A stretch of DNA of 64,000 nucleotides from an uncultured Chloroflexia bacterium (GCA_963763775.1 CAVXPZ010000003.1:736001-800000), one strand, 5' to 3'; counted from the first letter of the stretch, positions 12,877 through 27,817 are shown. The notes: generated from the letters alone by a model not told the origin. Numbers and translations are program-made.

Positions 12877-14097
12877 ATGTCGGACCAACGCCACCGCGAG
12901 TCGCGGGACGCGCTGACCGCTGAGCGTTTGGCTCGTGAGGCTGGCTCGACGCCCGACTACATCGCCCGGCTCGTCGAGGCGGGCGCCATCAGCGCCGATG
13001 TCGACGGGCGGTTCGCGATCGAGGACGTGCCTCGGGTCCGGCTGACGCTGGCCCTGGCGGACGGCGGGATCGAGTTCGACGACCTGATGTCCGTGATCCG
13101 CAGCGGAGCCCTCCAGCTCGACTGGGTCGCTCGGCTCTGGACACTGGGTGAGCCATCCGGACGGACGTTCGATGCCTTTGCCCGATCACTCGGCGAGCGG
13201 GCTGCCGACCTGCCGGCGATCTACGTTGCGCTCGGCCTGGCGCCACCCATGCCGGACACGGTCATGCGCCAGGACGAGGAGCGCGTCATCACGGACTTCC
13301 TCGAGCTTTGGGACCTGGTCGACGATCGCCCTGAGGTCTCCATTCGCGCCGCACGCATCGCCGGCGACGGGGTCCGACGGATCCAGGGCGCGACACAGGA
13401 CCTGTTCGACGAGCTTGGGGGACCTCCCGGGAACCAGGCAGCCAAGGGAATGTCTCCGGACGAGGCGATGCGGCCGGCGTTGCTTCTTGGCCCGGTCCTC
13501 GCGGAACTGATGGTCTGGCTCCAGGCGCGCCACCAGGAGAACGAGGTCTTCGCACGGATCGTGCCGTACGTCGAGGAAACCCTGATCAAGGCCGGGCATG
13601 GCGAACGTCATGGCCAGCAGCCCGCGATCGCGTTCGTCGACCTCGCGGGCTACACCGAGATGACGGTCTCCGGGGGCGATGATCACGCCGCTGAGTCTGC
13701 GACGACGCTGCAGATCCTGGCGGCATCGGCGGTCCGCAGCCACCGCGGTCGGGTCGTGAAACTGCTCGGTGACGGTGTGATGCTCCAATACGCCTCGATG
13801 GTCGATGCCATCGGCTCGGTTCGCGACCTGATGGCTTCCATCGCGGCGGCAGGCCTTCCGCCAGCGCACGCGGGCATCGCCTCAGGGCCGATGGTGGTCC
13901 GCGACGGCGACGTCTACGGACACACCGTGAACCTCGCGGCCCGGATCGCCGGCCACGCCCGCGCGGGCGAACTGCTGATCGCCGCAGATGGAGCGAACCA
14001 GCCGATCGGCGATCCTGTCGAGTTCGAGGACGCCGGGTCGGCCGCCCTCAAGGGCATCGCCGATCCCGTCCGCCTGCTGCGGGTGCTGCCCGGATGA
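12877..14097 (+). CDS. class III adenylate cyclase with N-terminal regulatory domain
   Basis: AFVDLAGYT, VKLLGDGVM and DVYGHTVNLAAR. Confidence 0.88.
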   Translation: MSDQRHRESRDALTAERLAREAGSTPDYIARLVEAGAISADVDGRFAIEDVPRVRLTLALADGGIEFDDLMSVIRSGALQLDWVARLWTLGEPSGRTFDAFARSLGERAADLPAIYVALGLAPPMPDTVMRQDEERVITDFLELWDLVDDRPEVSIRAARIAGDGVRRIQGATQDLFDELGGPPGNQAAKGMSPDEAMRPALLLGPVLAELMVWLQARHQENEVFARIVPYVEETLIKAGHGERHGQQPAIAFVDLAGYTEMTVSGGDDHAAESATTLQILAASAVRSHRGRVVKLLGDGVMLQYASMVDAIGSVRDLMASIAAAGLPPAHAGIASGPMVVRDGDVYGHTVNLAARIAGHARAGELLIAADGANQPIGDPVEFEDAGSAALKGIADPVRLLRVLPG

Positions 14098-15456
14098 GTC
14101 GGGCCACGCCAGCACGACCCGAGGGTGGCGACGGTCCAGGCGCTGCGCAGCAGACGTCCGCATCGACGGATCCGCCGATCATCGAGCTCCGTACCGACCG
14201 TGGGGAGCTCCGACGCGGCTCGCTGCGGTTCGTCGACGACCGAGTCGAACGGCGCTACCAGCGCCAGGGCGGAGCGGAGAGCAAGACGGGATTCCGCATC
14301 GCCACCGCCACGGCGGCGGTCATGTGGCTCCTGGCCGCCGCCGTCATCCCGATGGGCACACCGATCCCGGCCGATCGTGCGATCCCCGTGTGTCTCGCGA
14401 TGGCGGTCTTCAACCTTGCCGGCTTCCTGTTGTCGGCCGGGGCGGACACCCTGGATCGCCAGCACTCGATCGTTTCCGTCCTGACCGCGGTCAACGGGCT
14501 GGTCATCCTCTGGCTGGCGTCGGCGGGCGGCGTCCTGCCTGGATACGGGATCAGCGCGATCATGCTGCTGTTCGTCTTCGGGTTCGTCGCTCGCACCGGT
14601 TTCATCTTTGCCGCGTCGCGAACCGCCGTCATCGCCGTCGGCTTCCTCGTGGCTGCCGTGCTCTATGCGGGCCGGAGCAGCCTCCTCGTGGACGCGTTCA
14701 TCTTCGCGGCCGCCGTGATCGGCAGTCTCCTGGCGCTGCGACTCCTCGAGCAGTCACGCCGCCGCGTCTTCTACCAGGACATCGTCATCACCCGACAGGC
14801 AGACGAGTTGAAGGTCGAGAAGGACCGGGCCGACGCGCTGCTGCTGAACGTCCTTCCGGGATCGATCTCGTCGCGCCTCCTCGCGGGCGAGCGGACGATC
14901 GCCGACGCGTATCCGGCCGTCACCGTGCTCTTCGCGGACATCGTCGGGTTCACGCCGATGACCGCGCGTCTGCCAGCCGACGACGTGGTCGGGATGCTCG
15001 GCCGACTCTTCGCTCGCTTCGACGAGCTCGTGTCCGCGCGCGGCCTCGAGAAGATCAAGACCATCGGGGATGCGTACATGGCCGCGGGCGGACTGCCCGA
15101 GCCGCTCGACGACCACGCCGCTCGCGTCGTCGATCTCGGCCTCGCGATGATCGACGCCGGCCTACGAGGAGACCAACCGGATCGCCGACCTTCGGATCCG
15201 AGTCGGCGTGCATTCAGGGCCGGTCATCGGCGGCGTCATCGGCCACCGCAAGTTCGCCTTCGACATCTGGGGCGAGACCGTGAACATCGCCAGCCGGCTG
15301 GAGTCGCACGGCATCCCTGGCCGCGTCCACGTCAGCGCCGAGACCTGGCGGATCGTGCAGGACCGGTTCGATGCGGAGCCGCGCGGCCCGATCGACCTTC
15401 GCGGCTACGGACCGATGGAGACCTACGCGATCATCGGGCGCCGGGCCGGTCCATAG
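14094..15456 (+). CDS. membrane-anchored class III adenylate cyclase (frameshift near 15170-15200)
   Basis: About 6 TM segments; LLLNVLP, FADIVGFT, KIKTIGDAYM; then HSGPVIGGVIG...FDIWGETVNIASRLES in a second frame; ATGA overlap with the upstream cyclase. Confidence 0.88.
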
Positions 15457-15611
15457 GTCGTGTCGAGGAGCCGGTCGTGGCGCCCGACGCAGATCGAACC
15501 ATCGGATCTCACGCCGTCTCAATGGGGATGACCGGCGAACAGGCCTTGGGCTCGACCAGGCCGGCCGTGGTCGAGTCACGCATCGAACCGCCAAGGTCGG
15601 AGGGTCATCTC

Positions 15612-16448
15612 ATGCGCCGGATCCTAGGTACGGTCCTGGTCGCCGCGGCGGTCGCCGCCTGTACCGCGACGGGGGCCTCGCCTGGCGTCGGCTCCGGACC
15701 GCCGGTCCCATCGGTCGCGGTGACCGCACCGCCGGTCTCGGCCGGTCCGCCCCTCGACCGCTTCGCCCGCTCCATCGGTCGCGGTGACCGCACCGCCGGT
15801 CTCGCCTTCCGCCGCGATCTCGCTGTCGCTCCCCAAGACCTTCAAGTCGAAGGAGTACGGCTACACGATGGGCATGGCGGCGGACTGGACCGCGAAGGCG
15901 GCGACCCTGCTCGTCGATGACCCCAAGTCCACCGGCGACTCCGGGACCGATCTCATCACCGTCACCGGCACCGATACCACCATCCCGGTGGTCGCCTGGG
16001 ATCTCGGCCATCAGACGTTCGCCGCCTGGCTCGAGGATTACCGGGCGGCATGTCTCGGCGTCCGACGGGTGGCGGCGACTGGACCGCGAAGCGGCCACCC
16101 TGTCGTCGATGACCAAGTCACCGGCGACTCCGGGACCGAGTGCATCGCCGCACCGCGCACCGATACGACATCCGGTGGTCGCTGTCTCGGCATCCGTCCC
16201 GAGGAACGGGCGGCCATGTCATCGGGCGTGCCGGCGGGTTGCGACGGCGGTGATCCGTCACCTGGCCGCCCGTGGCGATCGGCGACCTTCAGGGGGTCTG
16301 GCAGCAGAAGTGCAACGCCGCGGTCGCGACCGTGGAGCACGGCGGCAAGGCCTACCAATTCGCCTGGGAGAACAGCACCTTCGAGGGCAGCAAGCACTTG
16401 TCGGAGACGAACTTCAAGGCCGTGCTCGCGTCCGTCAAGTTCCGGTAG
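15612..16448 (+). CDS. putative lipoprotein, disrupted by indels and an internal duplication
   Basis: MRRILGTVLVAAAVAAC lipobox, Pro/Ser linker, KEYGYTMG, and terminal frame WQQKCNAA...FKAVLASVKFR-stop. Confidence 0.6.
15708..15804 (+). repeat. 33-bp direct repeat x2 (VAVTAPPVS linker)
   Basis: CCATCGGTCGCGGTGACCGCACCGCCGGTCTCG at 15708 and 15772. Confidence 0.9.
15876..16230 (+). repeat. ~190-bp tandem duplication, second copy heavily degenerate
   Basis: 15876-16060 (GACTGGACCGCGAAG...GGCGACTCCGGGACCGA) recurs at 16071-16230 with many deletions. Confidence 0.8.
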
Positions 16449-16674
16449 GCGGCAGGGCACAGCCGACGTTCGGTACTCCTCGATCGATGCCGACGCCCAC
16501 AAGCCCGGGTGGCATCCGCGACGTTCCTGGCAGTACCGGAATCCGGACAACTGAGCGTGGCCGCGCCCAGAAACGACAGGATCCTGTCGATCAGGGACTC
16601 GACCACGAGAGGCCTGTGGCAAAACCGGTACTGGCAGGAACGCGACTTCGCGGCGCCGGACTCGGGGTCTTTGT

Positions 16675-17115
16675 CTACAGCTCGCGGGCTTCCATCCGTT
16701 CTCGCAACGAGGCGAGGTCGCGCTCGAATTGGCGAGTGGCCAGCCTCGCGAACAGCGGGCCGAGCAACCGGAACCCGCCGGTCGGCGTCGCCTCGAACGT
16801 CGCCGTCACGTTGGATCCGCTGCCCTGTGGTTCGACATCGAACGACCCGGCGAACGGGAACGGTCCCGACTGTGTTTCGTAGGCCAGCCGCCGACCCGGG
16901 ACGAAGTCGGTCACGGTCGAGTCCGTCTCGATGCGCCGACCGAGGAAACGGGTCACCTCGCGCGCGGTGCTCCCGACCCCGACCGGTCCCGTCGACGTCA
17001 GGTGTCCCTCGATCGATGCCGATGCCCACTGGGCATTCTTGCTGACGTCGGCCAGCACGGCGAACACGTCGTCGGGCGCTCGCTGGATCTGGACGCTCGC
17101 GCTCCCTCGGGCCAC
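16675..17115 (-). CDS. SRPBCC family protein
   Basis: SVQIQRAPDDVFAVLAD...GPVGVG...DLASLRERME. Confidence 0.85.
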   Translation of the reverse strand: MARGSASVQIQRAPDDVFAVLADVSKNAQWASASIEGHLTSTGPVGVGSTAREVTRFLGRRIETDSTVTDFVPGRRLAYETQSGPFPFAGSFDVEPQGSGSNVTATFEATPTGGFRLLGPLFARLATRQFERDLASLRERMEAREL

Positions 17116-17203
17116 GATCGGACTCCGTGTGTGCGGTCGGACGACGTTGATCGGCAGTGTCGCATGCCGTCGTCGTTCGGCGTCTCGCCGATGGGCGCGG
17201 GGC

Positions 17204-17648
17204 CTACAGCTCGCCGGCTTCCATCATGGTCTTGAGGTTCGAAAGGTCCTTCGCGAACGACCGCTTGTAGACGGCGGCGAGGAGCGGGGCCATCGGCCGC
17301 ATGACGCCAGTGGGCTCGAACGACACGAGCCAGTCGAGACGGGCTGCTGTCACCCAGGCTGATGCAGTCGATGGCGATGCGGACCTCGAACGGGAACCCA
17401 GAGATGCTGCGCATCGCGAGCCGCCTGTTCGGCTCGAATTCGGTGAGCTCCATCTCGTTCTCCGTCGTCCGTCCGCCGAATGTCGGGACGATGGCCCGCC
17501 GTCTCGTGCCGACGCCCATCGGGCCAGGAGTCGTGACCGTCTCCTCGATGGCACGGGACCACTTGGCGGCATTCTCGAGGTGGGTCAACACGGCGAAGAC
17601 GTCGTCGACCGGTCGCCTGATCGTGACGGTCAGCGCTGCCGTGCTCAT
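17204..17648 (-). CDS. SRPBCC family protein (frameshift near 17350)
   Basis: TIRRPVDDVFAVLTHLENAAKW...TEFEPNRRL, then DLSNLKTMMEAGEL; paralog of its neighbour. Confidence 0.82.
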
Positions 17649-17684
17649 GGCCGAAGCCTACTCGCGCGAGACTCCGGTTCGGTT

Positions 17685-17745
17685 GGGCCCGCCCGGCGGG
17701 ATCCGAGCGCGCGGTGCAAACCTCTCGGGTGGAGGGGGTCGAGGA
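17685..17745 (+). repeat. tRNA-Arg 3'-end att-like repeat R1
   Basis: GGGCCCGCCCGGCGGGATCCGAGCGCGCGGTGCAAACCTCTCGGGTGGAGGGGGTCGAGGA. Confidence 0.9.
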
Positions 17746-17829
17746 TGCGCCGTTTGCGACCGGGCGGCGCCGACGGTGGTCATCATGGTGGCCGTGGGAC
17801 GTTCTGGGCTCGAGCGGCATCTACCTGAC

Positions 17830-18378
17830 GTGAATGCCCACGAATTGGTCGACACGACGGCGACGGCCGAGCTGCTGGCTCGTGCGCGGACCGGCGAGCG
17901 CGAGGCCTTCACCGCCCTTGTCGAGCGGCATCATGCCGAACTCGTGCGCATCGCCTATGCCATCACCGGTGACGTCGACGCGGCCCGCGATGCCGCCCAG
18001 CTGGCGTGGATCAAGGCTTGGCAACAGCTGCCGAAGGTCCGCGAGCCCGAGCGCCTCCGGGCATGGCTGATCGCGATCGCGGCGAACGAAGCGCGCCAGT
18101 ACCTCCGCGCGCATCGACGGCGTCATGTGCGCGAGATCGCACCGCCGACCCTGGATGAGATGCCCGGGCACAGTGTGATCGCCTCAGCCGATCGACTCGA
18201 TCTCGCCGCCGCCCTGGTGCGTCTCGATCCGGCCGACCGCGGCCTGCTCGCGATGCGCTATCTGGCCGGCCTGACCGCGGAGGAGATCGGAACAGCGACC
18301 GGGCGATCCGCTTCGGGGGTTCGCACCCGTCTGTCTCGCCTCATCGCCCGTCTGCGTGAGGACCTTGACCATGACTGA
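17830..18378 (+). CDS. ECF sigma-70 factor (start uncertain, ATG 17785 possible)
   Basis: EAFTALVERH, ARDAAQLAWIKAW, RAWLIAIAAN; region 4 GLTAEEIG...SGVRTRLSR. Confidence 0.9.
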   Translation: MNAHELVDTTATAELLARARTGEREAFTALVERHHAELVRIAYAITGDVDAARDAAQLAWIKAWQQLPKVREPERLRAWLIAIAANEARQYLRAHRRRHVREIAPPTLDEMPGHSVIASADRLDLAAALVRLDPADRGLLAMRYLAGLTAEEIGTATGRSASGVRTRLSRLIARLREDLDHD

Positions 18379-19491
18379 CCGACCGACGTTCGACCCGTTC
18401 GAGCAGCGTATCGCCGCTGAGTTCGAGCGATATGTCCAGCCGGCAGCTGATCCGACGCCGGTCTCCGCGATCGCAGGGGCCGCGATGCGACCGCGCGGTC
18501 TCGGGGTCCGTGCTCGGAACCTGTCACGGCCACGCCGCTTCCTGCTGCTCGGGATCGCCGCGGCCTTCCTCGTGCCGGCGACATACCTCGCCGCGGGCAG
18601 CCTGCGACCTCCGACTCCGGACCTGAACGACCAGGTACAGCCACTCAGCCGGATCCAGGTCGGCGATCCAGGCGGCGCCGCGCTGGTTCGCTGCCGACGA
18701 CACGTCGCTCTGGGTCCACGAGCCCACGAGCCTGGTGCGCGTGGATCTGGCGACGTCCGCCGTCACGGGAACCGTCCCCCTGAACGGGATGGAGTACGGC
18801 TATGACGACGACCGGGGCCGGTTCCGTCTGGCAGACGGACTACGAGAACGACGTCCTCGTGAGGATCGACCCGGTCAGCCGGCAAGGTCATTGCGTCGAT
18901 CCCGGTCGGATCGGCACCGGCAGGCGTCGCCGTCACCGAGGGCTCGGTGTGGGTGGCCAACGAGCACAACGGGACGGTCAAGCGCATCGATCCCGCGACC
19001 AACAAGGTCGTCGCGACGATCGCGGTCGGTCCGGCCGGATCCGCCGGCCCACAGATCATGACGGCCGGACCCGGTGGTGTCTGGGTGGACATCCAGAACA
19101 ACGGCGATCGGTGGTGCGGATCGATGCCGCGACGAACACGGTCGGGCTGCGGGTGCCGCTGGACGGCCCGGTGGCGAGCGACGGCAGAAGGTCTGGATCG
19201 GCGTCGATGCAGGGACCGAACGGACTGTCGCAGGTCGTGCGCATCGACCCGGTCTCGGGCAAGGTCATCACCACGGTCGACCTCGATACCCAGGGCATCT
19301 GCGGCCTGGCCGTCGGCCTCGGATCCGTCTGGGTCGCCGACGGCGGGTTGACGCGGATCGACGCCGCGACGGGACGCATCCTCGGGCACCTCGATACCGG
19401 TGGCGACTGCGGCAACGTCGTCGTGGCGGGTGGCGCGGTCTGGGTCACCGCGGACGGTCAGCCGTACGTGCTGCGGATCTCGCCGCCGTAA
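18371..19491 (+). CDS. anti-sigma-like membrane protein with extracellular YVTN/Vgb-like beta-propeller (frameshifted)
   Basis: Overlaps the sigma stop; DPFEQRIAAEF N-terminus, a TM segment, repeats GSVWVAN...RIDPATNKVVATIAVG. Confidence 0.75.
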
Positions 19492-20722
19492 CCACGGTCG
19501 CCGGACGCTCCGGCCGGCAACCCGACTGGTCGCACGCCGGCGCGGAAGCCTGGCAGCGACTCCCACAGCGCGGCAGGGCCCTGGACTCAGGACGCCCTGG
19601 CCGTGACCTGACAACAAACCGACCTCGTCAAGAAGAGGAGTCCGAGATGCGTCATGCCTCAGTGGTCGTGCGGGCGAGCGTCGCCGCCATGGTTGCGATC
19701 TCCGTCGGAGCCTGTGGGGCGACACCGGCGAGTCCATCGCCCCGCGAGACCGCGCCGGCGGCTTCCGCGAGCGTGTCAGCCACGAGCCTCCACGGACGTC
19801 GTGGAGTCGCCGTCGGCCTCGACGACCGCGGCTCCATCGCCGTCTCCGTCATTCCCGGCCGGGGCGACGATCGACGGCCGGATCCAGGTCGGCGACCCCG
19901 TCGCACCGCGCTGGTTCGCTGCCGACGACACGTCGCTCTGGGTCCACGAGCCCACGAGCCTGGTGCGCGTGGATCTGGCGACGTCCGCCGTCACGGGACA
20001 GTCCCGCTGAACGGATGGAGTACGGCTACGCACGACCGGCGCCGGTTCCGTCTGGCAGACGGACTACGTTGAACGACGTCCTCGTGAGGATCGACCCGGT
20101 CACGGGCAAGGTGGTCGCGTCGATCCCGGTCGGATCGGCACCGGCAGGCGTCGCCGTCACCGAGGGCTCGGTGTGGGTGGCCGACGAGCACAACGGGACG
20201 GTCCAGCGCATCGATCCCGCGACCAACAAGGTTGTCGCGACGATCCCGGTCGGGCCGATCGCACCGACTGGGCCGCAGATCATGACGGCCGGTCCCGGTG
20301 GCGTCTGGGTGGGCATCCAGCACACGGGTCGAGAACGTGCGGATCGATGCCGCGACGAACAAGGTCGGCCTGCGGGTACCGTGGGACGGCCCGGTGGCGA
20401 GCGACGGCAAGCAGGTCTGGATCGCCGTCGATGCCAGGACCGAACGGGCTGCCGGCAGGCCATCCGCATCGATCCGGACACGGGCAAGGTCATCACGACG
20501 GTCGACCTCGATACCCAGGGCATCTGCGGCCTGGCCGTCGGCCTCGGATCCGTCTGGGTCGCCACAGGCGGATTGACGCGGATCGACGAGGCGACGGGAC
20601 GCATCGTCGGGCGCCTCGATCTCAATGGCGATTGCGGCAACGTCATCGTGGCGGGTGGCGCGGTCTGGGTCACCGCGGACGGTCAGCCGTACGTGGACCG
20701 GATCTCGCCGCAGTGACCACGG
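18648..20722 (+). repeat. ~850-bp near-identical duplication (18648-19497 vs 19877-20722)
   Basis: Long identical stretches, e.g. CGCTGGTTCGCTGCCGACGACACGTCGCTCTGGGTCCACGAG; similarity extends just past both stop codons. Confidence 0.9.
19647..20716 (+). CDS. lipoprotein with YVTN/Vgb-like beta-propeller (frameshifted)
   Basis: GAGGAG RBS; MRHASVVVRASVAAMVAISVGAC lipobox; RIDPVTGKVVASIPVG repeats. Confidence 0.75.
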
Positions 20723-20828
20723 CTGATCGCCCGCGCCGAGGGTCAGGGCCATCGCGGTCGGTGGCAGGTACAGGGGACCTCGACCGACGCGCACCGTTTG
20801 GCGCTGGCCCTACCGGAGAGAGTTGCAG

Positions 20829-20890
20829 TGGCTACGCCCGGAGGGATCCCAGCGCGCGGTGCAAACCCTGCGCGTCGAGGGGGTCGAGGA
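20829..20890 (+). repeat. tRNA-Arg 3'-end att-like repeat R2
   Basis: TGGCTACGCCCGGAGGGATCCCAGCGCGCGGTGCAAACCCTGCGCGTCGAGGGGGTCGAGGA. Confidence 0.92.
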
Positions 20891-21282
20891 ACTTGTCGCG
20901 GTGCTGAGAGCGGCCTGACCGTTGTCACGTAGAGTCGGCGGTGTGGTCGCAATAGTAGTGCGACCTACACGATCACAAGCAACGAGCTCGTGAGAGCCCG
21001 CTGGGAGCATGCCGGGTCGTGGTCGCGGTCACATGGGATCGGCTGACCGAGGTAGCCGGCCGGTACTGGGCAAGGCCCAGCCGATGGCGGTCGATAACCG
21101 ACTCCAGACGCACTCCTGGGAACGAGGACGCCGGCAACGCCTGTCGTCAGGTCGGGCCCAGGCGTCTCGGAGTCAAGGCCCTGCCACGCGGGTGTTAGCC
21201 AGACGAGCGCGTCACCACGGCCCGACTCGGGTCATCGTCGCCCCGCCTCGCTCTCGACGCGACAGGCATACAAAGTGGGCCG

Positions 21283-21549
21283 TCAAGCGGGCAGGGCCGG
21301 GCGCAGCGAGGCGAGACCCCACCAGACGACCACTAGGAGCGCGACGGCGATGGCGATCCGTGTTCGCGATGTCCCGGCCCGAGTCGCGTACCAAATCACA
21401 CAGAGCGGTGCGACCAGAACGGCCCACAGCAGAACGACAGCGTCCGGGTAGGCATGGTTGACGATGGCGAGCCCGACGACGATCCAAGCCACCACCGTCC
21501 AGACCACGATGGTCCATGTTGAGACACGCCACGCTGGGATGGATGGCAT
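21283..21549 (-). CDS. small hypothetical membrane protein (cargo between R2 and R3)
   Basis: 88-aa ORF with three hydrophobic segments. Confidence 0.55.
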   Translation of the reverse strand: MPSIPAWRVSTWTIVVWTVVAWIVVGLAIVNHAYPDAVVLLWAVLVAPLCVIWYATRAGTSRTRIAIAVALLVVVWWGLASLRPALPA

Positions 21550-21866
21550 CGGCTAGAGATTACCGCTGTGGCGTCGTCGTCACCCTGCGCCATCGCTGGC
21601 GCCGATCAGGTCGGGTAGGCGGCGGCAGACCCGTAGCACCCGGCGACCGACGCGCCGACTGGCCCCACCGCGCGCACGCCGGACCACGTTGCCCGCGGCT
21701 AACCGACACAACGTTACCGATGGAGCCGAGTGCCGTGACGCGAGACTCGGACCGTAACGTCTTGCTCTCGGGTACCCATCGCGGGCCTGCGCCACCTAGG
21801 CCACGACGTCAGGCGAGACGAACGTCTCCGACTGACCGCCTCCGCCACGTCACGCGCCCGAGAGAC

Positions 21867-21927
21867 TGGCCCGCCCGGAGGGATCTGAACGCGCGATGCA
21901 AACCCTTCGCGTGGAGGGCGTTGAGGA
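21867..21927 (+). repeat. tRNA-Arg 3'-end att-like repeat R3
   Basis: TGGCCCGCCCGGAGGGATCTGAACGCGCGATGCAAACCCTTCGCGTGGAGGGCGTTGAGGA; first 17 bp identical to 23444-23460. Confidence 0.95.
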
Positions 21928-22140
21928 GCTAATGCGGGCGCTGCGGGCGGCATGAGGGTGCTACCGAGACCGCGGCCGGCCTGCCGCCAGGCATGACTGA
22001 TGGCCACTGCCCCGGTCTAGCCGCGCGGCCGGCCCGCGCGCTGCCGGCAGCGTCGCGGCGCCACCTCTTGCATCGCGTCGGGCGGCACGACCAGCGCACG
22101 ACCGGTCCCGGCTCACATCGCCTTCGTCGTCGCGCCAGGC

Positions 22141-22557
22141 CTAGCGGAACCGGCGGAGGACCCGCTGTAGGACGACCCCGAGCAGGACGAGCGTTCCAAC
22201 GAACCAGATCATCCCGAGGACCGCTGCCGGGGTCCCTTGCGCATGAGTCACGTTCCCGATCACGCTGAACACCAGGAAGGTGCCGACGAATATCGGGATG
22301 GACACCAGTATCGCCATCAGCAAGAGGCCGATGCCCGCAAGCCCGACGGCGAGGTCGCCGATGTAGGACCCTGCGATCCCCCGAACAACCTTGCGCGCGT
22401 CCGGCGCTACCTCGGGCGGGGCCTCGCCGACAGGCGCGATAGTCGGGGCGACGGGGATCGTCCACGAAGGCGCCTGCCCTGATTCCGCCAACCTGGATGC
22501 GCGCAGGCGTCGCGACTCCTCCGCGATTGGATTTGGCTCAGCCTCATGGTCGTCCAC
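22141..22557 (-). CDS. hypothetical membrane protein (cargo between R3 and R4)
   Basis: 138-aa ORF with two C-terminal hydrophobic segments. Confidence 0.6.
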   Translation of the reverse strand: MDDHEAEPNPIAEESRRLRASRLAESGQAPSWTIPVAPTIAPVGEAPPEVAPDARKVVRGIAGSYIGDLAVGLAGIGLLLMAILVSIPIFVGTFLVFSVIGNVTHAQGTPAAVLGMIWFVGTLVLLGVVLQRVLRRFR

Positions 22558-22707
22558 AGCAATGTCTCATCGGCATCGTATGACATCGGCGTCTCGTCGC
22601 CCGTGCACGGATGGGTGGCGACCACGGTATAGATCTCGGGCCGGATCGCCTCGGCGCAGAGAACGACCCCAGGGGCACTCGACTTGGGTCGTGTCGTGCT
22701 CAGAAGC

Positions 22708-22768
22708 TGGTCCGCCCGGAGGGATCTGAGCCCGCGGTGCAATCCCTTCGTGTGGAAGGTGTCGCGGG
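22708..22768 (+). repeat. tRNA-Arg 3'-end att-like repeat R4
   Basis: TGGTCCGCCCGGAGGGATCTGAGCCCGCGGTGCAATCCCTTCGTGTGGAAGGTGTCGCGGG. Confidence 0.92.
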
Positions 22769-22794
22769 TCGCCGGCTCTCGGCGTCGGCGCACA

Positions 22795-23322
22795 ATGGCC
22801 ACGATGGACCATCAGCGTGAAGTGTCGGGTCAAACGTGGGATGTCACCGTCGAAGGGTCGCCTCTCCTTGTGGAGCTAGTGCCCTACGGAGGACGGCTGT
22901 GGGGCGCGCCGAGCAGCTTCCGAATGGGCATGGTCGAACAGACCCTGTCGTGGTCACCCGGGGTGTCCCGATGGCAGCGCACCAGGGCGCCGAAGGTCGG
23001 ATCGATCAATGCAGGCGATCACCGTCTCAGGATGACCTTGAACACGATCCAGCTCTCGCACCGGGCTGCGCTGGGTCGGAATGTGTCGGGTCTCAAACGG
23101 AGTGGACCTCTATCCTTCCTCGGCACCCTTGTCGGTGGCGCAGGGCTGGGAGCCGGCGCAGCAGGAGCGTCCCAGACGACCTTGACGTGGCTGATCTACG
23201 AGCTCGACATCGACGGTGTCCCCTACGGCTCGTGGGTCGCCAAAGCCGTCGACGGCCGCCCTGAGCGGTGGACCTTCGTGCTGCCGGGCGGCGTGCTCCC
23301 CGACGGTGAGTCGCGCGACTAG
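22795..23322 (+). CDS. hypothetical protein (cargo between R4 and tRNA; start 22795 or 22804)
   Basis: Open frame with protein-like composition and a Gly-rich hydrophobic stretch FLGTLVGGAGLGAGAAG. Confidence 0.55.
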   Translation: MATMDHQREVSGQTWDVTVEGSPLLVELVPYGGRLWGAPSSFRMGMVEQTLSWSPGVSRWQRTRAPKVGSINAGDHRLRMTLNTIQLSHRAALGRNVSGLKRSGPLSFLGTLVGGAGLGAGAAGASQTTLTWLIYELDIDGVPYGSWVAKAVDGRPERWTFVLPGGVLPDGESRD

Positions 23323-23443
23323 TAAGACCCGACAAGGACGTCGCGACGTCCAGTGCCGCAGTCGCAGCACGTAACGTGCCTTCTAGGACCGTGACCGGGG
23401 TCGGGGCCGACGACCCCAAGATTCGACCCACGTTTCAGAATCT

Positions 23444-23521
23444 TGGCCCGCCCGGAGGGAATTCGAACCCCCGACCTACTGATCCGAAGTCAGTCGCTCT
23501 GATCCACTGAGCTACGGGCGG
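23444..23521 (-). tRNA. tRNA-Arg (anticodon TCG)
   Basis: CCGCCCG/CGGGCGG acceptor stem, TAGCTCAGTGGA D arm, ACTGA-CTTCGGA-TCAGT anticodon arm, GGTTCGAAT T loop, encoded CCA; one extra base in the T arm. Confidence 0.95.
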
Positions 23522-23561
23522 ACGCCCGCGGATGATACCGCGTTACGCGCCGCTCGAGCCG

Positions 23562-24017
23562 TCAGGCGTAGAGGCGCGTGTCGACCGCGGCGATCTCGGC
23601 GTCGAGCAACGTCCGGCGCTGGAGCTGGCTCATCTCGTACCACGAGAGCGTGGCGCGGTTGATCTCGCTCGGGCTGACGTTGCACTGGCGGGCGATCAGG
23701 CTCGCCCGGACGGCGGCGCTGACCAGGACCGCGGCGACCCGGGCGGTGATCCCGAACGCATCGACACCATCCTGGCAGGCCGTCTTCTCGACGTCGCGCG
23801 CCCGGGCGAGGGTGTCGTCCATGAACTCGGCGCCATGATCGGACGGCAGCAGCGCGACACCCGATGCGAGCAGCTGGCGTGCGGCCTGGACGGGTGCGAT
23901 GGGGGCGCCGGACGCGTCCCGGAGCGGGATCTCACGGCCGTCGAAGCCGCGCATCGGGACACCGAGGCGCAGTCGGTCGGCGAGGAGGTGGAGATCGTCG
24001 TGGGCGTCGTGGGGCAC
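23562..24017 (-). CDS. hypothetical protein
   Basis: AAGGA RBS before GTG 24017; GC3-rich frame PHDAHDDLHLLADRLRLG... Confidence 0.65.
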   Translation of the reverse strand: MPHDAHDDLHLLADRLRLGVPMRGFDGREIPLRDASGAPIAPVQAARQLLASGVALLPSDHGAEFMDDTLARARDVEKTACQDGVDAFGITARVAAVLVSAAVRASLIARQCNVSPSEINRATLSWYEMSQLQRRTLLDAEIAAVDTRLYA

Positions 24018-24296
24018 GGGGCGGCGTTCCTTCGGGTGGTTCGGCACCCGCGACGGGCCCGATCTCCTGACAGTAGCGACCGTCGGTAGCGGCGCCGCAT
24101 CCGGAACGATGAAGAGTTCGCTACCGTCCGCCGCGACCCAACCGAAACCTTGTCCGACCACGACCCCGTCTGGCAGACTGCCTCGGTGATCGCCCATCGG
24201 TGCGCCAGGGACATGTGTACGAGCACGCCGCCTCGTCTCGTTCCTCGCTGAGCGCCTGATGCTGGGCCGAGCCCCAGCCCCACGAAGGGATCACCC

Positions 24297-25655
24297 ATGA
24301 CCACGACCAACGATCCGTCGAGTCCATCGCCGGAGACGATCTCCGCGTCGGACCTCCATGCCCGCCTCGCGGACTCGAACCTCACGATCATCGACGCCCG
24401 CACGAGTGCGGCGTACAACGGCTGGCGCCTCCAGGGCGAGACGCGTGGCGGCCACCTCCCGGGCGCGGTCTCGTTCCCGGTGGCCTGGCTCCAGAGCGTC
24501 GACGCGCCCGAAGTGGCGCGGCAGTTCGCCGACAAGGGCGTGACCACCGACCGCGAGATCGTCGTGTATGGCGACGGACTCGCCGACGCCGACGCGGTCC
24601 GCGTCCGGCTGACCGAGCTCGGCCATCGTGGCGTGCTGGTCCTCGAGCCGGGGTTCTCGGCCTGGGCCGCCGACCCGGCCCTGCCGCTCGACCGGCTTCC
24701 GCGCTACGAGCGGCTCGTCCACATCGACTGGCTGCGGGACCTGCTCGACGGCGGGAGCCCCGAGGCATTCGACGGCGGCGAGTTCCGGCTGCTCCACGTG
24801 AACTTCGGGGTCCCGGAGGAGTACGCAGACGGGCACCTGCCGGGCGCCCTGTACCTCGACACCAATCGACTGGAAGACCCGCTCGACTGGAACCGCCGCT
24901 CGCCCGAGGAGATCGGCGCGACCCTGCGCTCGCTCGGCATCGCGCACGACACGACGGTGATCGTGTACGGCCGCGACACGGTCGGCGAGGCCAACGAGAA
25001 GTGGCCGGGCCGCCGGGCCGGGCAGATCGCCGCGACCCGCGCCGCCCTGATCCTCCGCTACGCCGGCGTCAAGGACGTCCGGCTCCTCGACGGCGGCTAC
25101 GACTGGTGGGTGACCGCCGGGCTCCCGCTCGAGACGGTCGCCCGCGAGCCATCGCCGATCGCCGACTTCGGCGTCTCGATCCCGCAGCGCCCGGACTTCC
25201 TGGTGGACCTGCCCGAGGCCAAGGCGATCATCGCCGACCCCGATGGCGCGGCCCTGGTCAGCGTCCGGACCTGGCGCGAGCACATCGGCGCGGTCAGCGG
25301 CTACAACTACATCGGCCCGGCCGGCCGGATCAAGGGCGACGTCTGGGGCAACTGCGGCTCCGACGCGTACCACATGCAGCACTACCGCAACGTGGACAAC
25401 ACGATGCGCGCGTACCCGGAGATCGTCGCGAACTGGGCCGAGGCCGGCATCACCGCCGACAAATGGGTCGCGTTCTACTGCGGCACCGGTTGGCGCGCGG
25501 CCGAGACCTGGTTCTACGCGGACCTCCTCGACTGGACTCGGATCGCCGTGTACGACGGCGGCTGGTTCGAGTGGAGCGCCGACCCGGTCAACAACCCGAT
25601 CGAGATCGGGGAGCCGACCGACACGGCGATCCAGCCCAAGGAGTACGCCGCCTAG
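24297..25655 (+). CDS. three-domain rhodanese sulfurtransferase (YnjE-like)
   Basis: GHLPGA motifs, LLDGG, catalytic loop FYCGTGWRA, and YDGGWFEWS. Confidence 0.9.
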   Translation: MTTTNDPSSPSPETISASDLHARLADSNLTIIDARTSAAYNGWRLQGETRGGHLPGAVSFPVAWLQSVDAPEVARQFADKGVTTDREIVVYGDGLADADAVRVRLTELGHRGVLVLEPGFSAWAADPALPLDRLPRYERLVHIDWLRDLLDGGSPEAFDGGEFRLLHVNFGVPEEYADGHLPGALYLDTNRLEDPLDWNRRSPEEIGATLRSLGIAHDTTVIVYGRDTVGEANEKWPGRRAGQIAATRAALILRYAGVKDVRLLDGGYDWWVTAGLPLETVAREPSPIADFGVSIPQRPDFLVDLPEAKAIIADPDGAALVSVRTWREHIGAVSGYNYIGPAGRIKGDVWGNCGSDAYHMQHYRNVDNTMRAYPEIVANWAEAGITADKWVAFYCGTGWRAAETWFYADLLDWTRIAVYDGGWFEWSADPVNNPIEIGEPTDTAIQPKEYAA

Positions 25656-25658
25656 GGT

Positions 25659-27008
25659 TCAGCGCGTGAACTCCGGGAGCCGCTGGCGGTCCAGCCACTC
25701 CCCGGGCTCCTGCCGCGGGCGGATGAGCGCCGCCTCGCCGCCCCGCACGGCTACCTCGGCCGGGATGGGGTGCGACAGGAACAGCGGCATCGACTCGGTG
25801 AAGCCGTAGGCGCCGACATCGAGGACCGCCACGAGGTCGCCCACGTCCGGTGCGGCCATCACGGCGCCCTGGGCGAACACGTCCAGCCCCGAGCACAGCG
25901 GTCCCGCGACCGTGATCGGTACGAGCCGGCTGCCGGTCGCCGTGCCACGTCCCGACACGGCGCGCACCCGATGCTCCTGCCCGACCAGCGCCGGACGGAG
26001 CAGGTGATGGACGCCACCGTCGAGGATGACCGACGGTCGAGCCGTCGACCGACTTGCGGTCGACCACGCGGGCCAGGTAGGCGCCGGCCGGCCCGACGAG
26101 GAAGCGCCCCGGCTCGAGGAGGAGCCGCGCGCCGTCCAGCAGCGGGTCGCCGGGCCACGCGGCGGCGATCTCGGCGATGCCCCGGCCGAGGCGGGCGAGG
26201 TCGAGCGAGTCCTCGTGCGGTTCGTAGGGGATCCCGAGCCCGCCACCCGCATCGATGAGCCGGACCGTCGTACCGGACCGCCGCGCGAGCTCGCGAGCCG
26301 CCCGGACGGTCGAGGCGACGTGCGCCACCAGGGACGCGGCGTCGAGCACGTTCGAGGCGCCGAACGCGTGCAGACCGAGCAGCTCGAGATGCGGTGACGC
26401 GGCGGCGCATCGGGCGCTCGCCACGAGATCCGCCGCGTCCATCCCGAACTTGCCCGCGCCATCGTCACCGACGAGTCGGACCCGTTCCAGGCGGGCGTCC
26501 TCCGAGACCGCGGCGCGGAGCATGACGGGCACAGGGCCACGGTCCGCGTGCGCGGCGATCGCCTCGAGCCGCGCGAGCTCGCCAGGCGATTCCACCGTGA
26601 TGGCGCGGATCCCAGTGACCACCGCGGCCTCGAGTTCGTCGTCTCGCTTGCCCGGGCCGGTCATGACGATGCGCGAGGGCTCGATGCCCGCGCGGAGGGC
26701 CGTGGCGAGCTCGCCGCCCGAGGCGACATCGGCACCGAGCCCGAGACGCCGCCGAGATGCGCGACGACCGCGAGCGCCGGGTTCGCCTTGACGGCGTAGG
26801 CGATGTCGACGACCGGAGGCAGTGCCGCACGGAGCGCCGCCACCTGTCGCTCGATCACGTCGAGGTCGTAGACGTAGCAGGGCGTGCCGAACCGCTCGGC
26901 GATGGCCTCGGCCTCGAGACCGCCGAGCCGGCCCGCCCGGAGGATCTCGTTGCGGGCGGGCGGCCGGCCGCGGCGGGGTGCCTCGGCACGCTCGATCGTG
27001 AGGCTCAT
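25659..27008 (-). CDS. lysA: diaminopimelate decarboxylase (two apparent frameshifts)
   Basis: FGTPCYVYD, YAVKAN (PLP lysine), TGPGK, KFG, DAGGG, EPGRFLVG, GPLCSGLD and GAYG; ATGA overlap with dapD. Confidence 0.85.
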
Positions 27009-27817
27009 CGGAGTGCGCCCTCCAGGGCCACCCGCGCGGACGTGCCGGCGTCGCGGTCCTTGACGAGCAGCGCGGTCGCGATCGACAACCCGTGGCTCGC
27101 GGCGAACGACCCCGGCACGGAACGAGCGCCCGGCACGATCACCGCGCCGGCCGGGATCACCAGCGGGCGCTCGGTCGAGCCCTCGAGCACGCGCTCGCGG
27201 ACGAGGTCGTACACGCGGCTTGCGCCCGTCAGGGTCACGCCCGCCCCGATGACCGCGCCGCGGCCCACGAGCACGCCCTCGAGCAGCGCACTGCCCGCGC
27301 CGACGAACGCATCGTCCTCGACGATCACCGGCCGGGCGCCCGGCGGCTCGAGCACGCCGCCGATCGTGACGCCCGCGGCGAGATGGACGCGCGCCCCGAT
27401 CTGCGCGCAGGAGCCGACCAGCACGTGCGAGTCGACCATCGTCTCGGCGCCGACGAACGCGCCGATGTTCAGGTAGGACGGCGGCATGACGACGACGCCG
27501 TCGCCGAGGTGGGCGCCGCGGCGGACGGCGGTACCGCCCGGTACGATCCGCCACGGACCGTCCTCGAGATCGGCGCGCGGCGGGACGCCCGCCCGGTCGC
27601 GAAATGTCAGCGGCCCCGCGACCCACGAGCGCGTGGTCCGGTCCGCGAAGCACGCGAGGATCGCCGTCTTCACGTCGGGCCGAACGCGCCAGCCGTCGGG
27701 TGCGTCGTCATCGGGCTCGGCCGCGCGGACCCGGCCCGCCTCGAGGTCGTCGAGGATCGTGGCCGGGTCGATGGCGATCGCTGGGGGTCGCGTCGCGAGG
27801 CTCGTCTCGCCGGTCAT
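27005..27817 (-). CDS. dapD: tetrahydrodipicolinate N-succinyltransferase
   Basis: RIVPGGTAVRRGA, MPPSYLNIGAFVG, VGSCAQIG and GGVLEP. Confidence 0.92.
   Translation of the reverse strand: MTGETSLATRPPAIAIDPATILDDLEAGRVRAAEPDDDAPDGWRVRPDVKTAILACFADRTTRSWVAGPLTFRDRAGVPPRADLEDGPWRIVPGGTAVRRGAHLGDGVVVMPPSYLNIGAFVGAETMVDSHVLVGSCAQIGARVHLAAGVTIGGVLEPPGARPVIVEDDAFVGAGSALLEGVLVGRGAVIGAGVTLTGASRVYDLVRERVLEGSTERPLVIPAGAVIVPGARSVPGSFAASHGLSIATALLVKDRDAGTSARVALEGALR

Follow-up and report, generated by a model that had tools for sequence, protein, structure and literature searches.

A recombinase-less repeat array at tRNA-Arg(TCG) of a Chloroflexia bacterium, probably the stacked attL scars of elements that used a large serine recombinase

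Genomic islands can pile up by integration, decay to an element without integration genes and accretion of the next element, as described for streptococcal elements (PMC5704250). At Prochlorococcus islands, neighbouring elements are reported to be split only by a partial tRNA and to come with fragmented integrases and extra partial tRNAs; 910 of the 937 tycheposons counted in the same preprint carry a tyrosine recombinase (bioRxiv 10.1101/2020.12.28.424599). Serine recombinases at tRNA genes, called rare, are on record for Mycobacterium actinomycete integrative and conjugative elements (AICEs; tRNA-Leu) and for phage phiRSM1 (tRNA-Ser) (PMC3218068); the Islander paper states that tRNA-gene targeting is not known for serine-family integrases, and serine recombinases at tRNA genes are passed over by the standard island finders (PMC4383910). 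In myxophage Mx8, attP lies within the integrase coding sequence and integration gives the gene a new 3' end (PMC6070905). Here we analyse an array of four repeats beside the tRNA-Arg(TCG) gene in a 64,000-nt stretch of DNA from an uncultured Chloroflexia bacterium (GCA_963763775.1, CAVXPZ010000003.1:736001-800000; hereafter the window, with positions counted from its first letter). We interpret the array as stacked attL scars, probably left by successive site-specific integrations of one element family that used a large serine recombinase (LSR) and not a tyrosine integrase. Tandem decayed islands at tRNA genes are known biology; the unusual part is the serine recombinase.

The window lies on contig C3 of an assembly (G000) of 3.3 Mb in four contigs that is 87 % complete. 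It was compared with the genomes of the same genus (131 in total, G000 included, the others also carrying G numbers) and with a metagenome contig, L044. Its tRNA-Arg(TCG) gene is the sole gene with a TCG anticodon among the 52 tRNA genes of the assembly, and downstream of it, which on the plus strand is to its left, lie four direct, co-oriented repeats, R1 to R4 (Table 1). A 17-nt core, the reverse complement of the tRNA 3' end, is found at 17685, 21867 and 22708 as well as at 23444 in the tRNA itself; the core at 20829 has one inserted base (TGGCTACGCCCGGAGGGA) and is visible by alignment only. When up to two mismatches are allowed, the window holds four cores against 0.17 expected, and none of 100 shuffles reaches four. 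The repeat search gave an 84-nt family with copies at 17690, 20835, 21872 and 22713 (spacing 3145, 1037 and 841 nt), which are 67, 100, 79 and 62 % identical, in this order, to the reference copy. Aligned over 61-89 nt, the four repeats share 79-87 % identity, a mutual divergence of 13-21 %.

An earlier reading of the window from its sequence alone (the sequence-only reading) had described four co-oriented repeats of ~61 bp that join the tRNA-Arg(TCG) 3' end to a common non-tRNA arm. Repeat search and alignment confirm the coordinates and the number of copies; the length has to be revised, since the conserved unit of R2 and R3 exceeds 61 bp and extends over about 89 nt to a common stop codon. 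The sizes given for the segments between the repeats and the tRNA (about 3.1, 1.0, 0.84 and 0.74 kb) also hold. Nor is the repeat scattered over the genome: a BLAST search of the whole assembly with the 101-nt R3 region returned only R3, R2 and R4 at E<1e-10 (the remaining matches are <=23 nt, at E>=0.04), and a profile of the arm translation matches G000 at exactly four places, R1 to R4. An intact tDNA with co-oriented displaced fragments of the same tDNA (17685, 20829, 21867, 22708) is the Islander-type signature; within the islands of the array, no integrase gene was found.

Table 1. Features of the tRNA-Arg(TCG) array and its surroundings, by position in the window
Feature	Position	Strand	Remarks
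tRNA-Arg(TCG), putative integration target (attB-like or attR junction)	23444-23521	minus	ARAGORN; Rfam tRNA, 64 bits
R4, probable attL scar nearest the tRNA	22708-22796	plus	core with 1 mismatch; tail VRPEGSEPAVQSLRVEGV, then degenerate; stop lost
R3, probable attL scar	21867-21955	plus	core perfect; tail frame intact, ARPEGSERAMQTLRVEGVEELMRALRAA; stop 21953-21955
R2, probable attL scar	20829-20918	plus	core with 1 additional base; tail frame intact, LRPEGSQRAVQTLRVEGVEELVAVLRAA; stop 20916-20918
R1, most distal probable attL scar	17685-17773	plus	core 17685-17701 with 2 mismatches; tail ARPAGSERAVQTSRVEGVED, then degenerate; stop lost
Probable LSR 3' remnant left of R3	21808-21861	plus	VRRDERLRLTASATSRAR against LSR ...VAREEYLLLVASATARAQ, 11/18 identical; weak
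Probable LSR remnant left of R2	20797-20828	plus	last ~10-15 codons (ALALPERVAV); read from the sequence, weak
Unit 1	17685-20828		ECF (extracytoplasmic function) sigma factor and two tandem beta-propeller genes
ECF sigma factor	17791-18378	plus	Sigma70_r2/r4; TIGR02937 at 89 bits
Membrane-anchored beta-propeller, anti-sigma-like	18356-19491	plus	frameshifted reading
Second beta-propeller lipoprotein, tandem duplicate	about 19650-20716	plus	frameshifted reading
Unit 2 cargo, 88-aa hydrophobic open reading frame (ORF)	21283-21549	minus	no family match
Unit 3 cargo, 138-aa ORF, hydrophobic C-terminal half	22141-22557	minus	Pfam only below threshold (PspC transmembrane region, E 0.005)
Unit 4 cargo, 175-aa ORF	22795-23322	plus	no family match
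Possible older, boundary-less island part	15457-17684		two SRPBCC/polyketide-cyclase-like genes on the minus strand

The arm is protein-coding. In the plus-strand frame in which the core reads ...ARPEG, R2 and R3 run about 22 codons further to a stop at the same place (translations SQRAVQTLRVEGVEELVAVLRAA and SERAMQTLRVEGVEELMRALRAA, each closed by the stop), and R1 and R4 keep the first 15-18 residues before they become degenerate. R2, R3 and the L044 copy have kept a 28-codon frame with a common stop position. Their codon differences are mainly synonymous (9 synonymous and 5 non-synonymous for R2/R3, 10 and 2 for R2/L044, 9 and 5 for R3/L044), with third positions accounting for 11 of 18, 9 of 13 and 12 of 17 base differences, respectively. 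Thus, the copies still belonged to working genes when they diverged. Going upstream from each core, a stop closes the frame within 11-50 codons, and there is no start codon; the gene body is missing in G000.

Relatives and databases supply that body. The R3 tail is identical at 25 of 29 positions to residues 303-331, the C-terminus, of P0017, a database LSR fragment with Recombinase and Zn_ribbon_recom domains that ends ...EARVWMARPEGSERAMQTLRVEGVKELVRALVAA and is 88 % identical to an LSR of genome G072; the tails of R1 to R4 all align to LSR C-termini, that is, the junction sequence derives from the attP of the element. In G072 the ...ARPEG frame at tRNA-Arg(TCG) is open for 515 codons. Its ORF of 495 aa has the Resolvase, Recombinase and Zn_ribbon_recom domains of an LSR and reads into the tRNA, so that the protein ends ...EARVWMARPEGFEPPTY (...ARPEGFEPPTY), with its last residues encoded by tRNA antisense; a tRNA fragment with a displaced tail lies 8.6 kb from the tRNA. 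The match of the R3 tail to the P0017 C-terminus and the G072 LSR that reads into the same tRNA together argue that each repeat is an attL scar. We interpret the arm as the native last ~22 codons and stop of an LSR gene whose predicted attP lies inside the reading frame. The shared non-tRNA arm would therefore be the cut-off 3' end of a recombinase gene and not a dedicated recombination module, and the gene containing the att sequence that the sequence-only reading had suggested looking for exists in relatives, as an LSR gene whose frame runs across the att core.

The divergence of the repeats also bears on a local origin, by segmental duplication or unequal crossing-over of one att junction. 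Unit 1 does contain a real tandem duplication, the propeller gene being present twice (18356-19497 and 19650-20722, about 90 % identical, 1224-1228 nt apart) and only once in G117. However, the 13-21 % divergence of the repeats is mostly synonymous and points to changes acquired under selection in working genes, the DNA between the repeats is unrelated, and tails of this family mark the tRNA in 12 further genomes of the genus as well as on the metagenome contig. We regard local duplication of the repeats as very improbable.

LSR genes that cross an att core are not confined to G072. Such a frame is seen in relatives and in database proteins, with integrated ends of the type ...ARPEGFEPPT. and native ends of the type ...ARPEGSERAMQTLRVEGVKELVRALVAA. 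A search of the protein collection with the G072 LSR gave 83 homologues at E<=1e-10, with source names in Chloroflexota and Candidatus Limnocylindrales; many are full length (532-560 aa, starting ...RGL[IV]RES[TS]...), and one, P0002 (533 aa), has all three LSR domains, with Resolvase positions 3-136 of 145. Among the 56 closest homologues, 34 have a C-terminus of tRNA-antisense residues (...ARPEGFEPPT. and similar), seven a long native-type tail ending in -AA and nine some other end, and six are truncated before the core. Within the genus, 23 of the 131 genomes have LSR homologues (E<=1e-5; none in G000), and a tRNA gene lies within 1.5 kb at 22 of the 30 loci around the matches (Pro-CGG at 12, Arg-CCG at seven, Arg-TCG at two, Arg-CCT at one). 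In G087 an apparently complete element of 13.3 kb is found between a tRNA fragment and tRNA-Arg(CCG). Its LSR has a 550-codon frame that runs into the tRNA and covers Resolvase domain positions 4-142 of 145, and the distal tRNA fragment is followed by the tail VGRALATYEIPIEGRDEWLAAARRLA and a stop. The other genes encode PrimPol with AAA_25, a PD-(D/E)XK nuclease, HNH, an amidase, an adenylyltransferase and an N-acyltransferase, and on this gene content elements of the G087 type are predicted to be small, self-replicating integrative elements.

The tails themselves were followed with a profile made from an alignment of seven of them. At E<1e-3 it matches 13 of the 131 genomes (G000 included), and at E<=0.1 it matches 46, most of them weakly. 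Where tRNA-Arg(TCG) shares the stretch, the tail lies 0.8-8.6 kb downstream of the tRNA and in the same orientation (G066 3.7 kb, G072 8.6 kb, G127 4.5 kb, G042 7.6 kb, G130 3.1 kb). In G117 and G069, long ORFs of 415-417 aa that precede tails were considered as further candidates and rejected as antisense to real genes or otherwise spurious.

These data are best explained by a model in which the LSR gene contains attP within its 3' end, where a 17-nt block shared with the tRNA would encode ...ARPEG and be followed by about 22 codons and a stop. Integration at the 3' end of tRNA-Arg(TCG) would regenerate the tRNA and leave the LSR gene antisense into it, with the new short end ...ARPEGFEPPTY and stop; the native tail and the former tRNA 3' end would both be displaced to the far side of the element and become the repeat. 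Four or more elements would have entered in turn, each pushing the earlier units away from the tRNA, and in every element the LSR gene and the backbone would have been deleted and a small cargo left. The units would now be immobile unless a recombinase is supplied from outside, and the array in the window is most likely inert. The sequence-only reading had proposed at least four integrations by a single element family, and for this tRNA 3' end the proposal is supported.

Could the repeats instead be scars of ordinary tyrosine-integrase islands, or an artefact of assembly? Tyrosine integrases are given as the rule at tRNA genes (PMC4383910, PMC8092301), but the tails match LSR C-termini and not tyrosine integrases. 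PF00589 (tyrosine recombinase) has no match near this tRNA in G000, G005, G017, G007, G010 or G011; in G000 it has none on contig C3, all six assembly matches being on contig C1. The assembly does have indel errors, but mis-assembly would not create repeats as diverged as these (61-89 nt, 79-87 % identity), relatives show equivalent arrays, and sequencing run X1 has short contigs that agree with 22316-22855 at every position, none of them bridging a repeat. Taken together, scars of tyrosine integrases or an artefact are scarcely credible as the source of the array.

No sequencing run shares a fraction above 0.09 of the words sampled from the stretch. The four compared runs consist of contigs from other soil samples, with coverage chiefly of the ECF/propeller module and the tRNA; none of these contigs bridges a repeat, no joint links two repeats, and contigs of this kind cannot show circles. 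The tRNA-Arg(TCG) gene is 78 nt long here and 77 nt in all relatives, the difference being an extra A at 23460 that is missing from contigs of runs X2, X3 and X5 and is probably an assembly indel. Several genes are split between frames (a cyclase at 14094-15456, an SRPBCC gene at 16998-17648, a decarboxylase-like gene at 25588-27653). Homopolymer indel errors, as in a long-read assembly, fit this pattern better than pseudogenes do, and the frameshifts in the propeller genes, the cyclase and the decarboxylase are probably assembly errors.

At all four units the attL-type core and tail are kept, and the P-side arm amounts to at most 10-20 degenerate codons at R1, R2 and R3; it is not detectable at R4 or at the tRNA. 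Left of R1 there is a possible, weak LSR remnant (..RARLRFGW before ARP). The probable remnant left of R2 (Table 1) has a better-preserved counterpart, ALALPDEARVRMARPEG, at the matching place in G117 (compare ALALPEKVEMARPTG in G087) and contains a degenerate core-like 17-mer at 20805; that left of R3 is in a frame that differs from the frame of the R3 tail.

Several points weigh against reading the array as decayed LSR islands or sit uneasily with it. The assignment to an LSR rests, for G000, on relatives and on tails of 22-28 residues. PF07508 (Recombinase) and PF00239 (Resolvase) were not found in the assembly, and neither a match to the G072 LSR nor any sizeable LSR fragment was found in window or assembly, in line with the sequence-only reading, which saw no recombinase in the window. 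At 87 % completeness, the LSR gene is 'not found' rather than 'absent'; the assembly also contains indel errors. The G072 LSR itself lacks the first ~40 positions of the Resolvase domain; the start of this domain holds the catalytic serine of LSRs, and the G072 enzyme is probably dead or decayed. Six of the seven genomes in which a family-1 tail and the tRNA are both in view (G000, G005, G066, G127, G042 and G130) are without an LSR gene there, G072 being the one that has it. Random erosion is expected to leave LSR remnants of all lengths, so it counts against the model that none is detectable next to the tRNA in G000, G066, G127, G130 and G042. When five G000 flanks were searched alone, none gave a match at E<=0.01, and the remnants left of R1 to R3 are short and weakly supported. 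Of 13 tails read, seven still have an intact frame and stop, and 'empty' units exist, of 128 nt in G005 and of 230 nt in L044.

The mechanism raises a further difficulty. Serine integrases canonically recombine only attP with attB (PMC3783163), so repeated entry at a tRNA already occupied by attR needs an extra assumption, namely that the P arm was lost first or was tolerated. An order in which each element eroded before the site was reloaded was considered, since LSRs do not use attR, but could not be upheld, because the possible remnants left of R1 to R3 would fit entry before erosion. In the reconstructed attP of two families, the best centre of dyad symmetry falls after core position 15 (14/22 in G072 and 15/22 in G087, values reached by 72 and 7 of 2000 shuffles, respectively), and the G000 scars give other centres.

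Much of this would be accommodated if the units were non-autonomous cassettes that need only core and tail in cis, are moved by an LSR in trans and use the tRNA as a gene-capture platform. The genomes with tail and tRNA and no LSR gene there, the five without a remnant beside the tRNA, the intact tails and the empty units all speak for such cassettes, as does the symmetry centre after core position 15, which in two families would put nearly the whole identity block into one half-site. The sigma and propeller module of unit 1 is 89.7 % identical over 1.7 kb to a module that lies next to att fragments on a 12-kb contig of G117, whereas in the housekeeping DNA right of the tRNA the two genomes share 77-78 % identity; it follows that the module was transferred horizontally. 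However, carriage as cargo of a complete element explains this movement equally well. The symmetry signal is modest, and the G000 repeats centre elsewhere. A circular junction, a presence/absence polymorphism or an identical cassette at two places was not seen (circles being beyond the reach of the contigs), no LSR gene was found in the assembly, and a module of about 190 nt left of R3 was not found elsewhere in the genus. Recombination of attL with attB, finally, is forbidden by the canonical LSR mechanism as described (PMC3783163). We consider cassettes moved in trans unlikely. Of the two possibilities offered by the sequence-only reading, eroded islands are the better one, and the movement of cassettes is without evidence and a minority possibility. 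Its likening of the locus to an integron-like platform is not sustained, as no integrase resides beside the array and no attI/attC organisation was recognised (no attC model was run).

The three orphan ORFs of units 2 to 4 (88, 138 and 175 aa) have no above-threshold match in Pfam, PHROGs or NCBIfam, and a 211-aa neighbour has none in PHROGs or NCBIfam. The GC content at third codon positions of the unit 2-4 ORFs is 0.76-0.81, against 0.85-0.95 in neighbouring chromosomal genes. Left of R3 and to the right of the unit 2 ORF, a non-coding stretch of about 130 nt (21677-21807) holds an inverted repeat (CGTTACCG...CGGTAACG) and is about 78 % conserved with positions 340-420 of L044, the only other sequence found to share it; the genus has no further copy. 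A search with the 207-nt stretch left of R3 likewise did not find it elsewhere in the genus (matches of <=51 nt only). An Rfam scan of 15000-25000 found no family other than tRNA and left a hairpin-like stretch left of R3 unmatched. A semi-conserved YTCRGR motif is seen left of many cores. The cyclase gene ending at position 15456 of the window has its G012 homologue 90 nt from the tRNA, and the insert in G000 may therefore reach back to 15457. A tblastn search with the sigma factor gave over 40 matches in the 3.3-Mb assembly, indicating many ECF paralogues, several of them clustered at about 824-869 kb of C3, close to the contig end.

Arrays of this kind recur at the same tRNA in relatives. 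Fourteen relatives were examined at tRNA-Arg(TCG), on 15 stretches. Nine have no tRNA fragment there, G017, G007, G010 and G011 have one each, and G005 has six at <=2 mismatches and a seventh at three. Cassette number and content, which the sequence-only reading had proposed to compare between strains, thus vary, from 0 to 7 fragments. The arms are of at least three kinds, which match different database LSR C-termini (ARPEGFGRAGTT... and ARPEVSEFRT). In arms of the third type (L028 of G005 and L034 of G010) a 14-nt inverted repeat, ATGTCGCGACTCAT / ATGAGTCGCGACAT, brackets the core. A 1.33-kb unit between the G010 fragment and the tRNA is common to G005 and G010; the 165-nt stretches to the left of that fragment and of the tRNA share 97.6 % identity in G010. 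On L044, two family-1 scars lie 230 nt apart (476-791), and the next 5.4 kb hold no tRNA-Arg, only tRNA-Gly(TCC) on the other strand; either the array has become separated from its tRNA or that tRNA is located farther along. A first degenerate DNA pattern of core and tail had no match in viral_contigs or genome_contigs; a second matched only a G005 contig in genome_contigs and the metagenome contig L044, and nothing in viral_contigs.

G000 itself has two further integrase-less arrays, one with three fragments downstream of tRNA-Arg(CCT) (C1:600532-607401; tRNA at C1:607326) and one with two fragments downstream of tRNA-Arg(CCG) (C3:517863-528193; tRNA at C3:528118). Both tails of the CCG array end in ...IPIEG[RH]DEWLAAARRLA and a stop, like the tail of the G087 element. 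On contig C4 the 17 nt of the tRNA-SeC 3' end recur without mismatch 12.5 kb downstream of the gene (C4:617226; 629693-629789), with identity that continues into the T-arm. It may mark another island; no recombinase-family match was found on C4.

If the stacked-scar reading holds, serine-integrase elements that target tRNA genes, a class described too little so far, have left a clear fossil record in this array. The clade of soil Chloroflexota LSRs to which it points would target tRNA-Arg and tRNA-Pro genes and span its own attP, so that integration alters the C-terminus of the enzyme. The locus also teaches how a lost serine integrase can be recognised: the scar holds the enzyme's own last codons and can be read as protein. 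For annotation, this explains variable regions of the genus that are without any integrase, and for recombinase engineering it means that natural attP/attB pairs can be read directly from genomes. An LSR gene spanning its own attP at a tRNA was not met with in the literature searched, supplements not covered. Going further, one may ask whether, in an LSR clade in which the identity block lies nearly all in one half-site and the gene spans attP, a bare 60-90-nt tRNA end plus tail suffices in cis, giving trans-mobilisable cassettes, and whether integration switches a native, -AA-tailed enzyme to a tRNA-encoded form. We hold this combined proposal to be rather doubtful. If true, tRNA-Arg and tRNA-Pro genes would be reloadable gene-capture sites for the whole genus (G000 alone has three such arrays), and the recombinase would itself register the state of its element, free or inserted. 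We speculate that the conserved -AA end of the 22-residue native tails may be an ssrA-like degradation signal; ssrA-like tags are discussed in connection with integration-dependent immunity (PMC8092301).

Among described systems, the decay-and-accretion arrays built from cis-mobilizable elements (CIMEs) are alike in site-specific integration, loss of the integration genes, retention of att scars and entry of the next element at the regenerated target, and in the outcome, co-oriented recombinase-less units (there is no integrase match in the array here). They differ in that CIME systems involve tyrosine integrases and conjugative elements, whereas the G000 array has LSR scars, has mostly lost the P-side arm and is known from sequence alone. 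An integron consists of intI, attI and attC cassettes, with an IntI of the tyrosine family. The array resembles it as a co-oriented series of short, mostly single-gene units bounded by recombination-site repeats; unlike in an integron, no adjacent integrase gene, attI or common promoter was recognised here, and the repeat is a tRNA end joined to an LSR tail. Tycheposons, as described in the preprint, are likewise small replicative elements at tRNA genes that leave degenerated remnants, with primase/helicase modules as in G087, but they belong to another phylum, their hallmark is a deep-branching tyrosine recombinase in place of the LSR, and the preprint text available to us describes no arrangement with attP inside the gene (bioRxiv 10.1101/2020.12.28.424599). 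The Mycobacterium AICEs and phiRSM1 share a serine recombinase that targets a tRNA gene, in another host phylum and at other tRNAs (PMC3218068). Mx8 offers the closest parallel for the gene itself, with attP inside the integrase gene and a C-terminus altered by integration, although its Int, according to the published account, is a tyrosine recombinase (PMC6070905).

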